Of a stretch of DNA of 64,000 bases, positions 36,401 to 42,400 are shown in pieces (the first letter of the stretch is position 1; the number at the start of each line of letters is the position of its first letter). The stretch is taken from assembly GCF_988243305.1 (NCBI RefSeq), contig NZ_OZ547136.1; one strand, given 5' to 3'. The position numbers were made by a program.

Positions 36401-39400
36401 CAAGCGCACCATGATCGTCTTTGTATCGCTGATTGACTTTCGGTAATGGAACATCTTCTGACATAAATTTTAGTACGGTAACAGTTAACTAAATTTTCAT
36501 GTGGTAGCACTGAATCAGGAGACTGCGTTTCCTGATGTGCGCTGTTAATTTTCTGTTTTTACGAAACATTTTCCCCTTCTTCCTGTGTATTTTATTGCGC
36601 TCCTCCTTTCATGTCCTTCCCATATCCTGAAACTCACTTAAATACTGTTGAATCGTCAAACATTGCAACTTTCAATGACTGAAATCAAAAATTGCTATTT
36701 TTTAAGCTAACCAACTGTATTAAAAGCATTCAGTGGAATAATTTTCTGCACTTTTCCAGTAATTATGGTTATAAATTTTGTAATGTGCTGTTTTTGCGAT
36801 ATATGGCAGAATAAAGAACTGTTCATTTGTGTTATATCGATCGATAAATCTGTCATGTTGCTGTAGTTCAGATCATTATTCTATAATGATCAAAATTAAG
36901 TCAATTCTGGCTGGTTTGTTACTCAGCATTCTGGTACCGGTTGATGCGGGTAAATACCGGAAGGGCGGTAGCGTGCCATCGCAAAACATGGTGGGAGGTA
37001 TCGTCAGGAGGCTGGTGATTGTTGGTATGACATGAATAAAAGGTTTTTCGTTTGACTGGAAAATTATGTTGCAGGAACGAGAGGACTGAGGAACAAAGCT
37101 TATTCCGGCGCTGTCCGTCCTTGCTGTCACTGACACTGATGTCTGCTTTATTATCGCCTTTATCTCTTCAGGCAGCGGATGTCCGGCGTAGCGGAGATGA
37201 AGCATTTATCATTCAGCAGCAGCGTCAGGAAGCCCTTGAGCAACAACTGACGCCTTCAGCCCCTGATGTTCGCCTTTCTGCACCTGGCTCTTTTGCCCAT
37301 AAGATTAATTTTCCTGTTGAAACGCCCTGTTTTCAGATTAAACAGACGGAACTGAAGGGGGCTGATGCGTTACCACACTGGCTGCCTTTACAAAAAATCG
37401 CCAACGGGGCGGTCGGGCATTGCCTGGGGGCGAAAGGAATTAATCTGCTGATGAGTACATTGCAGAACCGTCTGGTCGATCATGGTTATGTCACCACCCG
37501 TGTTCTGGCACCTTCGCAGGATTTAAAAAGCGGTATCCTCCGGCTGGTCATTATTCCCGGTGTTGTGCGACATGTGCGTCTGACACCGGACAGTGATGAC
37601 TATATTCAGTTGTATTCCTCATTCCCGGCACACGAAGGTTCTCTGCTGGATTTACGGGACATTGAGCAGGGGCTGGATTTAGGTAACAGCCGGATACAGG
37701 GACAACATACTGAGCTGAATGCAACCAGTGGAAATCTGTCTACACAGAATGCGCAACTGAGTGCCGGTACGCTTTCCGCCCGGACTGCCGGGCAGTTCAG
37801 CAGTAATGGCGGTACGATAAATGCCGACACACTGCAGATATCGGCACAAAGCCTGTCAAATCGTAAAGGCAGTCTGATTCAGACGGGAACAGGGGATTTT
37901 TCGCTGAGTCTGCCGGGAAGCGTGGATAACCGGGAAGGGCTGCTTGCGGCAAATGGCGCGGTGCGTCTGGATGCACTGAGCCTTGATAATCGCAAGGGGA
38001 AAGTGCAGGCGGAGCAGTCACCCTCCCTTCAGAAATCCCCGCCCACGTTTCTGAAACCGTTTGTGGCTGGTGTCTGTGCGGCATTGCTGGCGGTCAGCGT
38101 GGCTATTCCGGGATGGCAGTTTCTGACACAGCCATCACCGGAGGAGCAGCATTTTACCTGGGGGAATGGTTGTAAAAAGCAGTGAAAACAGTAAATACAG
38201 AGTATCGTGATGAATTAGTGCTCAGGGGCTACCAGTATTCAATAACCAGCGTATCGGCATCGCATTCCTGTAATTCTGGTATTGACTGTTATGACTAAAT
38301 TCAATGTATATATGGCAGGCAGAAATATGTTAACAGTCCCGGAGTTGTGGAAAATCCTCCGGAGCTAATATCGGGAGTGCCTTAACAATTTTCCGTAAGT
38401 TAAATGATAATTTCTGAGTGAGAATATGGTCACGATTTGTGTTGACGGTGAAAATAAGACTCATAAAATTACCGACTGGACGCTGTGGGCTGGAAATGAC
38501 GACAGAGAGGTTATGCTGACCTGTCATTTTCGCAGCGGGAGAAAATATACTCGTCCGCTTTCTGTATGTCAGATAACGCCAACTGTAAATTTGCGAAATG
38601 TTTTCCTCGAAAGGAAAGGGAACGCTGTAACATCCCGGGCTGAACTGGTTATTATATATGGTGATAAATATGCTGCTGTTTATTACCGCGAGGGTGAACG
38701 ACCCTACATCATGAAAACGACCGGCCTTGACTTTCAACAGTGTTCAGCATTTACAGAGCATGCCGTGTTTAATTACTTGTGTAGGGTGGCTAATGAACGT
38801 ATTTTTTATGCCCGTGGTAATAACAGAAATATCGATGAGAATATCCTTAGGCAGATAAAGAAAATAGTTCCTCATCCGGATACCGCCTTGCATGCATACT
38901 GTTCAGGACAGAGTAAAAAACGTGATTCGCCATGGGGTTTGATTTTTCCGTTTGGTCTTAATGAAAGTCAGTTGCTGGCTGTCAAACGGGCATTTTCCTC
39001 ACAGATTTCAGTTATTGAAGGACCACCTGGAACAGGTAAAACACAGACTATACTCAATATTGTTGCTAATATATTAATTCAGAATAAAACAGTGGCAATT
39101 TTGTCCAATAATAACTCAGCTGTCAGTAATGTTTATGAAAAGATGGACAAACAGCAACTGGGATATGTGATGGCACGACTGGGGAGTACGGAGAACAGGC
39201 AACAGTTTTTTTCAACGTCGATTTCGCGTTCTGAGGAAGTCTTACCTGACTCACCGTCTGCAAATGCGATTGATGATGTACTTCAACAAGTGAAAAAACA
39301 CCTGAATGCCATTAACCAGGTCGCTTCGTTAAAAGCAGAAATTAATGAGCTGAATATTGAGTATAAATACCTGCAGCAATGGCAGAGTCAGAATCTTCGA

Positions 39401-42400
39401 CCGGAGGAGCTTTTTTCTCACAAATACCGATTTTCCTCACAAAAAACAACCGACCTGATGGCTTATATTCATTACCTTTCTGACAGGCGGATTGGATTCA
39501 GAAACAGAATTGATTTGTTGTTAAACTTCATGATACTGAAAGTCAAACCATTGATGATTCCGGAGAGAAGGCTGGCGCTATTTACTTCTCTTCAGCTTTC
39601 TTATTATGAAAAAAATATCCGGGAAAAACAAATTTCTCTGAATGAATATGAGGAAGTATTTAAAAAATCTGATTTTAAAATTTTACTGGGGCGCCTGACA
39701 TCATGGTCTATGCTTTATTTAAAGCAACATCTGCGAAGAAATGTTTCAACAAGAAGTTCATTCTCGGCAGAGACATACAGGGATGAATTTGACCGTTTTA
39801 TAAAGCGTTTTCCGATTATTGGTAGCAGTACGCATTCGATTATTAACTCTATCGGCAAGGGGGCCCTTCTTGATTATGTTATTATTGATGAAGCCTCGCA
39901 GCAGGATATTGTTCCGGGCATTCTGGGACTGGGATGTGCCCGTAATGTAATCGTTGTAGGGGATCGTAAGCAACTTCCACATGTTCCTGTATTACTCCCG
40001 AACAGCCCATCTCCACCGGCAGAATACTATAATTGTGAGAAATATAGTCTACTTGATTCGGTTTGTATGTTGTTCAGGAACATGGTGCCAGTAACCCTTC
40101 TTAAAGAGCATTATCGTTGTCATCCTAAAATCATTCAATTTTGTAATAAGCAGTTTTATGATAATGCTCTGATACCGTTAACGGTTGATTCCGGTGAAGC
40201 CTCATTATCTCTGGTCATCACGGCAAAAGGAAACCATACCCGTAATTTTTCAAATCTCAGGGAGCTTGAATCTCTGGAAGGTCATTACTGGGATGAAGAA
40301 AGTAGCAGGGGATACATTGCCCCATATAATGCACAGGTTAATCTGGCTGAAAAAGTGCTGCCTGCTGATTTTGTGAAATCGACGGTGCATAAATTTCAGG
40401 GACGGGAGTGCGATGAAATTGTGTTTTCCACTGTGCTGGATAAGAAGCGCAGCAGCCAGCACAGTCGGAACATCGCGTTTGTTGATAATCCTGAACTGGT
40501 GAATGTCGCTGTTTCAAGGGCCCGAAATAAATTTACGCTGGTGACTGGTAATGATGTATTTGAACGCCACGCTGGACATATTGCGGCGCTGATTCGTTAC
40601 ATCAAATACTACGCTGATGACGGAGAGATTTTCGAGAGCCCGGTCATATCAGCATTTGATTTGCTGTACAGTGAGTATGACAAATCACTGGAACGACTGA
40701 ATAGTAGATTGAATTCAAATGATTCACACTTTAAGTCAGAACAGATTGTGGCCTGCCTGTTGCGGGATATCCTGTCGCAGGATAGTTATCGGAGTATGAT
40801 GTTTCATTCACAAATAGCGCTGAATCAGTTGGTGTTGCTGGAGCGGGGGGATTTTACACACCGTGAACAGTTATTCATGCGTAACCGGGCCAGTTGTGAC
40901 TTTGTTGTTTACTATAAGGTCGGGAAGACTCCATTAGGGGTTATTGAAGTGGATGGAGGTTATCATCTGACCAGTGTTCAGGCTGAACGTGATGAACTTA
41001 AAAACAGTATACTGAAGAAATGCGGCCTGCCATTGCTAAGATTACGTACTATAGACAGTGATATAGAAGGGAAGTTGGGAGCGTTTCTGTCAGGCCTGAC
41101 AGGCTAAAATCTGAATAAAAAATATTGCAGCGGGAGGTCTCAAACCTGATTTGGTCATGTGCCACACACAATTGTACGAACCCCATGGACACAGGCTTCT
41201 TTGTTTTGGTTACATCAACGTACGTATTCCTGATACATATAAAAATAAGTGCTATTGCTCAAAGCTAACAGGGAATGTTTCTGTTGAATAATTCCTTAGT
41301 GAATAAACTTTATCAGGGGGTAATTCTATTACAGTGAATACTTCCTGCAAAATGATATTTGAATTGTTCACCATCTGCATCATATTTTCTTATTTACAAG
41401 TTGAAAGGATAGTATATGTTGAAAATGCATGGATTTTCCAGATGTGTTACCAGTAAGAAGCAGGTGGATAAAGGATGTGATAACAAATCCAACAACCAGG
41501 TTAATATCTGAAGATTTTTGTTGTTATTATTTATCCCCAAAGCGGTGAGTTATTAATGAAGTTTGCCTGAATGTATAAACAGAATTATTCGACATAAAGC
41601 CAGGAAAATGAGTGATACGCTTTTAACCGAAAAAATCCTTACCGGAGAAAATGTTTTGCGTGCCGCAATCGCCCGCATTGAGTGGATTTTTGAAACATTT
41701 CCGTCGGTATGTCTGTCTTTTTCAGGTGGAAAGGATTCCACCGTGCTTTTCCATCTTGTGGCAGAGGTGGCCCGCAGGAGAAAACGTCATTTCTCTGTTC
41801 TGTTCATTGACTGGGAGGCCCAGTATCGGTGCACCATTGAACATATTCAGAAGATGCGGGAAATGTACCATGATGTGACGGAAACCTTTTACTGGGTGGC
41901 ACTTCCCCTGACCACGGTAAACGGCGTCTCGCAGTTTCAGCCGGAGTGGATATGCTGGGAGCCAGGAGTGACCTGGGTTCGCCAGCCACCGGAAGAGGCC
42001 ATTACGGATATGACATATTTTCCCTTTTTCCGGTATGCCATGACGTTTGAAGAATTTGTTCCGGCATTTTCTTCCTGGTTTGCCGGTAACCGGTGTGGAG
42101 TGGCAGTGCTGACCGGTGTTCGTGCGGATGAATCCCTCAATCGCTTTATGGGGCTGGTGTCTCAGCGCAAACTGAGATATGCCGATGATAAGCCCTGGAC
42201 CACGGCATCGCCTGAAGGGTTTTATTACACCATGTATCCGTTGTATGACTGGAAAGCCCGCGATATCTGGATATATAACGCCAGAGCTTGTGCCATTTAC
42301 AATCCTCTGTATGACCTGATGTACCGTGCCGACGTGCCGTTACGCAACATGCGTGTCTGTGAACCTTTTGGTCCTGAACAACGTAAGGGGCTGTGGCTTT

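Follow-up and report, generated by a model that had tools for sequence, protein, structure and literature searches.

A helicase–DUF2726 nuclease fusion gene in an Escherichia coli pathogenicity island as a candidate single-protein defence family

Helicase and nuclease activities are found together in several bacterial defence systems. The single-gene system Hhe, reportedly described by Gao et al. in 2020, combines a DUF4011 domain, a superfamily 1 (SF1) helicase and a Vsr/MTES_1575 endonuclease. In Hhe, mutation of the Vsr domain (E1731A) abolishes protection (bioRxiv 10.1101/2022.06.16.496414). Mokosh type II consists of a single SF1 helicase–nuclease, a monomer that is protective by itself (bioRxiv 10.1101/2025.07.10.664194). 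According to a preprint, YjhR of Escherichia coli K-12 is a fused Mokosh (type II MkoC). We analysed here a gene coding for a helicase–nuclease fusion, located at 38426..41107 on the + strand of a 64,000-nucleotide stretch of E. coli DNA (NCBI RefSeq assembly GCF_988243305.1, contig NZ_OZ547136.1), this whole stretch being called the window below. A reading of the sequence alone had proposed this gene as an antiphage candidate of Hhe type. The protein represents an uncharacterised variation on the theme of single-protein helicase–nucleases. We read it as a self-contained, horizontally mobile enzyme that on balance probably acts alone against nucleic acid entering the cell, be it phage or other mobile DNA.

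Domain architecture of the fusion protein

The open reading frame (ORF) proposed from the sequence was exact: it is uninterrupted from 38426 to 41107 on the + strand, codes for a product of 893 aa and represents a complete helicase–nuclease fusion gene, identical DNA being annotated in E. coli genomes. The exact 893-aa protein is present in public collections, Shigella included, without a functional name, and RefSeq designates the WP_000256234-type protein only as 'AAA domain-containing protein' or 'DUF2726 domain-containing protein'.

Pfam profiles, structural relatives and motif conservation identified residues ~178-730 (38957..40615, + strand) as a helicase core of the Upf1/DNA2-type SF1B class. 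Pfam gave AAA_11 at residues 178-518 (1.4e-20) and AAA_12 at residues 549-583 and 625-707 (7.7e-14), and the closest solved structures of the motor, in sequence searches as in Foldseek with the full model, were Upf1, IGHMBP2, SETX/Sen1 and Dna2. The Walker A motif GPPGTGKT (199-206), the Walker B motif DEAS (488-491) and motifs III-VI are near-invariant among 250 family members, with K205 of Walker A and D488 each kept in 249 sequences of the alignment, and E489 and R698 of motif VI in all 250. The SF1B motif set announced by the sequence-only reading was thereby confirmed. The full-length AlphaFold2 model, which has a pLDDT (predicted local distance difference test) of 63.5 and falls below 50 for residues 558-763 in the second RecA-like domain, shows a long helical insertion (~260-460) within the first RecA-like domain. 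A 5'->3' polarity of the helicase is assumed by analogy with the SF1B Upf1-like clade.

The C-terminal part, residues ~795-880 (40808..41065, + strand), corresponds to a Vsr-like PD-(D/E)XK endonuclease domain (DUF2726, PF10881), as indicated by Pfam, by the solved structure 3r3p and by conservation. When the isolated domain was compared with the Pfam models, DUF2726 was matched at 9.8e-14, DUF559 at 7e-4 and MTES_1575 at 1.4e-3. This profile search supported the Vsr/DUF559-type fold that had been claimed, and judged by these matches the best-fitting nuclease model is DUF2726, not DUF559. In the same way, the C-terminal domains of 31 diverse relatives matched DUF2726 in every case, MTES_1575 in 18 and DUF559 in nine. 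The family profile retrieved the Vsr-like homing endonuclease I-Bth0305I (3r3p) with an E-value of 0.0096, and Foldseek on the full model gave weak matches to BstEII and TnsA. A survey of PD-(D/E)XK proteins groups DUF2726 with Vsr and DUF559 (PMC3424549). The pattern DFVVY...IEVDGGYH...RDELK...LLRL is present, and the candidate catalytic residues are kept in nearly all of the 250 members: D825 in 249, E841 in 250, D843 in 243, H847 in 236, D856 in 250 and K859 in 250. Since catalytic-type residues of both the helicase and the nuclease are retained in these 250 members, both enzymatic activities are under selection across the family.

The N-terminal domain, residues 1-176 (38426..38953, + strand), is private to this helicase family and is its fastest-diverging part. 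Searches of Pfam, PADLOC, NCBIfam and PHROGs gave no match to it. A model of the isolated domain, built with 38 relatives, reached a pLDDT of 90.3 and exhibited about ten beta-strands arranged as small SH3/Sm-like barrels, followed by three helices; all significant matches of a structure search in AFDB50 were members or fragments of the same helicase family. The median identity to the query is 23% for this domain, compared to 41% and 42% for helicase and nuclease, respectively, so that the N-terminus diverges about twice as fast as the catalytic parts. We propose that it might be a sensor or regulatory module.

Distribution, neighbours and a probable role in defence

Identical or near-identical DNA was found in 647 of 5,426 complete E. 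coli genomes (12%); the gene is absent from K-12. A word-indexed search gave 4,336 relatives, and the best 120 of them, from Salmonella, Yersinia, Serratia, Edwardsiella, Pantoea, Photorhabdus, Pseudomonas, Burkholderia, Halomonas, Methylobacillus and other genera, were all ~890-910 aa long, with the same domain list and 55-96% identity to the query. An exhaustive search of 1.84 billion representatives returned 853 clusters (50% identity) at E <= 1e-30, and in at least 150 of these the proteins are ~900 aa long, with an alignment that extends from the helicase to the end domain, the C-terminal nuclease. When one genome per GTDB species was scanned, at least 447 genomes contained a relative, in Proteobacteria, Firmicutes, Actinobacteria, Bacteroidota and Chlorobi, Desulfobulbus included. 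The full-length identity of the E. coli protein to the Burkholderia, Pseudomonas, Oceanobacillus and Enterococcus copies is 53-58%, and the 55-57% identity to the copies of the Firmicutes Oceanobacillus and Enterococcus points to lateral transfer between phyla. The gene is thus accessory, patchy and horizontally acquired.

The gene is also decaying in places. In the allele of E. coli O157:H7 (strain H2495, locus L011, 7727-10407), a 1-nt deletion in codon 164 (gene position 490) splits the gene in two, and the parts are annotated as a 'hypothetical protein' of 171 aa and an 'AAA domain-containing protein' of 722 aa. The latter O157:H7 fragment accounts for many 722-aa entries of public databases. 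The ORF is split as well in four other species (L031, L045, L060 and L090).

The island that carries the E. coli gene also holds a recognised defence system, as a complete Mokosh type I system is present in the window at 1-5306, ~33 kb upstream of the helicase. The left edge of the window falls within MkoA, the residues inside the window matching the PADLOC MkoA profile at positions 390-1603 (E = 0) and the whole protein being 1,652 aa long in the identical genome NZ_CP048934; MkoB, at 3870-5306, gave a PADLOC match of 1.9e-151. RefSeq names these two proteins only 'AAA domain-containing protein' and 'hypothetical protein'. In other species, nine of 29 immediate neighbours of the helicase that were put through a semi-quantitative screen had PADLOC matches at E <= 1e-8 or better. 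In Alkalimonas, a full-length PD-Lambda-4_A homologue of 1,274 aa (L013, 12795-16619, PADLOC E = 0) follows the helicase on the same strand after 86 nt, and a homologue clustering with it occupies the same position in a second Alkalimonas locus (L014); helicase and PD-Lambda-4_A may form a local defence pair or a small island there. The neighbours with PADLOC matches further include an HsdR of type I (L053), a Res of type III (L073), a methyltransferase of type II (L050) and a DUF2075-type ATPase described below, and GajA and an HKD+Snf2 protein are encoded within 10 kb of the helicase (L054, L073).

We infer a defence role from the architecture, the patchy and transferred distribution, the fast-diverging N-terminus, the repeated pseudogenisation and the defence neighbours at some loci, and the antiphage candidacy proposed from the sequence remains reasonable on these grounds. 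In the mechanism that we envisage, the family-private N-terminal domain would keep the enzyme inactive, or would recognise an infection cue or a substrate feature. The Upf1-type SF1B motor would then translocate 5'->3' on single-stranded DNA or RNA at the expense of ATP, and the C-terminal Vsr-like, metal-dependent endonuclease would cut DNA, which could result either in direct destruction of the invader or in host DNA damage as part of an abortive response. Substrate, outcome, N-terminal role and defence role are, in this scheme, those that we infer. More tentatively, with a confidence somewhat short of even, the E. coli protein might be a member of a widespread and unrecognised single-protein immune system, present in at least 447 species of five phyla and distinct from Hhe, Mokosh and Nhi, in which a Upf1-type motor and a DUF2726 nuclease are combined with a new, rapidly evolving N-terminal sensor having no structural relatives outside the family.

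Several points weigh against a defence role. Helicases of the Upf1/Dna2 class also have functions in DNA repair and in the surveillance of RNA. Every defence match of the protein in PADLOC and NCBIfam is partial, restricted to the helicase core and far below the cut-offs, no full-length model being matched, and a literature search found no published study of the helicase–DUF2726 family. At most of the proteobacterial loci inspected, the helicase is usually a solitary islet amid metabolic genes, with no defence island. The neighbour screen began with a batch of nine proteins picked for their large size and had no genome-wide background, so that enrichment was not quantified, and its 'distal' comparison set itself held defence genes. 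The family is essentially absent from phage genomes, of which 50,697 records gave five matches, all weak and partial, and it is seldom found on true plasmids, the plasmid matches lying mostly on megaplasmids or chromids. Finally, because of the low pLDDT of residues 558-763, the geometry and coupling between the domains are unreadable in the model.

Alternative explanations and the surrounding island

The sequence-only reading had left open whether the protein acts alone or in a larger module. Such a module would join the helicase to the products of 41563..44476, an IbrA-like PAPS reductase, an IbrB-like ParB-domain protein, a PerC-family regulator and a 214-aa protein, and we hold it to be highly improbable. 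RefSeq annotation of identical DNA corroborated the IbrA/IbrB-like pair that had been reported downstream. These genes are on the same strand as the helicase, behind a 455-nt A+T-rich spacer that precedes ibrA and in which a consensus scan, itself weak, showed no canonical terminator; of 641 E. coli genomes with the helicase, 611 preserve its junction with ibrA. Both facts would suit a module, but the same spacer has promoter-like sites of its own, and the retained junctions are 97-100% identical, so that the linkage in E. coli represents one clonal island segment and not independent evidence. Moreover, most of the 2,077 E. coli genomes with an IbrA-like gene lack the helicase. We surveyed 10 kb on each side of the helicase in 87 non-E. 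coli loci, from ~80 other species, and clustered the 1,405 flanking ORFs. No conserved partner gene emerged from this clustering, no neighbour family being present in more than 13 of the 87 loci; the recurring neighbours either belong to generic families (ABC ATPases, LysR regulators, short-chain dehydrogenases) or indicate sites of insertion. In none of these loci does the IbrA/IbrB pair stand beside the helicase, and homologues occur within 10 kb in Edwardsiella only, a proximity that can be counted for the module. There (L004/L005, 1-1388), an IbrA-like (62% identical) and an IbrB-like (49% identical) gene are located ~8.6 kb upstream of the helicase, the interval being filled by LysR, MFS, AP-endonuclease and GntR genes, and this proximity could be a coincidence or the remnant of a shared island. 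In the window itself, the IbrB-like ParB-domain gene (42825-43463) carries an AAA-to-TAA change at 43281-43283 (K153*) with respect to the 212-aa reference allele, a nonsense codon which removes the last 60 residues and leaves the ParB-like N-terminal part, while the helicase is intact. The comparative context and this stop codon led us to reject the helicase + IbrA/IbrB module. With no conserved neighbour, a linkage to IbrA/IbrB that is clonal only and an interrupted IbrB, the helicase gene therefore acts alone, which is the part of the earlier alternative that held.

Acting alone, the protein might still have other functions than the single-protein defence that we favour. It could be an accessory DNA-repair or recombination enzyme, resembling Dna2, an end processor of the AddAB/RecBCD type or a motorised mismatch nicking enzyme of the Vsr type, that acts on host ends, flaps or mismatches. 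Dna2, with its SF1B helicase and PD-(D/E)XK nuclease, is indeed among the closest solved relatives of the core, the gene is found between housekeeping genes in many Proteobacteria, once beside uvrC, and Vsr is itself a repair nuclease (PMC3424549). The domains thus fit this function, but a gene present in only 12% of E. coli, inserted at different and non-syntenic sites in each species, transferred across phyla at high identity, repeatedly pseudogenised and provided with a hypervariable N-terminus is a misfit with conserved repair, and we consider this explanation unlikely. A similar, low probability is given to a motor-driven restriction enzyme, either type IV (modification-dependent) or type-ISP-like, in which the N-terminal beta-barrel would read a DNA feature such as a modified base before direct cutting; this would be a plausible sub-case of defence without an abortive component. 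In single-chain restriction enzymes that depend on NTP (nucleoside triphosphate), one polypeptide combines a reader domain with a motor and a nuclease, and the present layout would be analogous to theirs. In some loci the helicase adjoins restriction genes of types I and III or an orphan methyltransferase, and no conserved cognate methyltransferase was found beside it in the 87 loci, as expected for a type IV enzyme; on the other side, the N-terminal domain has no similarity to known modified-base readers. Least probable, together with the module, is a selfish or element-maintenance gene, coding for a motorised homing-type nuclease or for an island factor involved in replication, transfer or inter-element competition. 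Sequence searches with the nuclease domain retrieved a single solved relative, the homing endonuclease 3r3p, and the gene behaves as a one-gene islet. In several unrelated Proteobacteria it lies just downstream of guaA, with guaA/guaB directly upstream in five loci (L008, L025, L029, L044 and L021 are among the guaA-type or similar sites), and near pheS-pheT-ihfA in Pseudomonas and Stutzerimonas; both positions look like recurrent insertion hot spots. Pfam-annotated contexts from seven genera showed a lone gene amid housekeeping and metabolic genes, sometimes with insertion sequence (IS) elements, a resolvase or HipAB nearby, and recombinase and IS genes are close in several loci. Against a selfish element stand the near-absence from phage genomes and the rarity on true plasmids, no consistent partner recombinase being seen and no flanking repeats having been found around the gene in the window.

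The surroundings of the gene agree with the AT-rich island DNA noted from the sequence, the G+C content being 0.39-0.44 over 38-42 kb compared to 0.50-0.57 in most of the window. The latter is a mosaic E. coli pathogenicity island containing IS1 and IS3 copies, the aerobactin operon iucABCD-iutA and an enterotoxin gene; Ag43 and a CbtA/CbeA toxin-antitoxin pair are present in the reference genome. A sigma-70 promoter-like site, TTAACA-18-GATAAT (10/12 positions; weak, by consensus scan only), is located at 38382..38411 on the + strand and ends 15 nt before the start codon. At the other end of the gene, a perfect 16-nt palindrome, CTGTCAGGCCTGACAG, at 41087-41102, ends 3 nt before the stop codon and is not a canonical terminator because no T-run follows it. 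An Rfam scan found no associated non-coding RNA and gave a single sub-threshold match, to the JUMPstart RNA element at 36924-36975 (21.3 bits, the gathering score being 35; E = 0.5), upstream of a POTRA-domain ORF and probably due to chance. That ORF, just upstream of the helicase (37052-38185), codes for a 377-aa 'POTRA domain-containing protein' that joins the start of a ShlB/FhaC-type transporter to 20-aa repeats of filamentous haemagglutinin (NCBIfam TIGR01731, 4.5e-11), and it looks like the chimeric remnant of a two-partner secretion locus.

We observed also, in four Firmicutes loci (L042, L066, L080 and L089), a recurrent pair formed by a small ORF and a DUF2075-type ATPase at 1-2.7 kb from the helicase. 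The ATPase (~620-680 aa) matches the PADLOC models PDC-S41, Nhi and AbiO at 1e-15 to 5e-11, and its partner of ~105-130 aa is MazG-like, as judged from its sequence alone. This pair looks like a separate candidate defence module.

Significance and comparison with known systems

The helicase–nuclease architecture will not surprise a specialist, and the gain is rather in the abundance of the family and its absence from current tools, as PADLOC v2 and NCBIfam miss it. The gene is common in pathogenic E. coli (O145, O111, O104:H4 and extraintestinal pathogenic strains, with a frameshift in O157:H7) and in many other bacteria. If the protein is protective, a compact 2.7-kb one-gene defence family would be gained, the domain of unknown function DUF2726 would acquire a biological role and the candidate sensors would include a new one, the N-terminal domain. 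The motor of Mokosh, which is of Upf1 type, would moreover be pairable with another nuclease, in support of modular effector exchange among helicase-based immune proteins. If it is not protective, it would be an abundant accessory helicase–nuclease that is worth knowing for annotation.

The label 'Hhe-like' used by the sequence-only reading did not extend beyond analogy. The NCBIfam equivalog of Hhe, NF042953, has a cut-off of 2000 bits, and the protein scored 76.3 bits with this model, its best stretch being 181-297; with the PADLOC Hhe model PDLC02194 it scored 57 bits, best over 180-260 in the Walker-A region. These models span ~1,800-1,900 positions, compared to 893 aa for the protein, in which a Pfam scan found no match to DUF4011, and the isolated C-terminal nuclease domain matched no Hhe model of PADLOC or NCBIfam. 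Membership in Hhe was rejected on the curated scores, the missing DUF4011, the half size and the limitation of the match to the Walker-A region. Mokosh type II was rejected in turn. PADLOC matched MkoA at 1e-43 over residues 178-729 and MkoC at 2.3e-40, the MkoC match being confined to the helicase stretches; no phospholipase D (PLD)-type domain was found by Pfam in the 893-aa protein and the adjacent genes are not MkoB. Nhi was discarded as well, the model PDLC02372 remaining unmatched at E <= 0.01 in the PADLOC scan.

The protein resembles Hhe in placing an SF1 helicase and a C-terminal endonuclease of the Vsr superfamily on one polypeptide; it differs by the absence of DUF4011, a length of about half, another N-terminal domain and a nuclease that is closer to DUF2726 than to MTES_1575/DUF559. 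With Mokosh it shares the Upf1/COG1112-type motor, MkoA and MkoC being the closest defence helicases by sequence, and with type II (MkoC) the monomeric helicase–nuclease fusion. However, its nuclease is a Vsr-like PD-(D/E)XK domain whereas that of Mokosh is of phospholipase-D (HKD) type, and the N-terminal region of MkoA is absent from it, the identity to the MkoA encoded in the same window being ~25%. Nhi, Nhi-like systems and Hna also unite nuclease and helicase activities, which jointly restrict phages in their case, but the PADLOC Nhi model recognises the DUF2075-type neighbour in other loci and not the helicase, and the helicase of Hna belongs to superfamily 2 (SF2). The motor relatives Dna2, Upf1, IGHMBP2 and SETX, of which Dna2 likewise carries a PD-(D/E)XK nuclease on the same chain, are housekeeping factors of replication, repair and RNA surveillance with ~12-16% identity to the protein, and the nuclease of Dna2 is N-terminal and belongs to another PD-(D/E)XK family. 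Vsr, DUF559 and I-Bth0305I are in the same nuclease subgroup, with the signature D...ExD..H...D..K, but they are small, stand-alone or intron-borne, and have no motor. The protein, with a Mokosh-like motor, a nuclease of the Hhe-like class and an N-terminal domain of its own, therefore represents a third combination, which is neither Hhe nor Mokosh nor Nhi.

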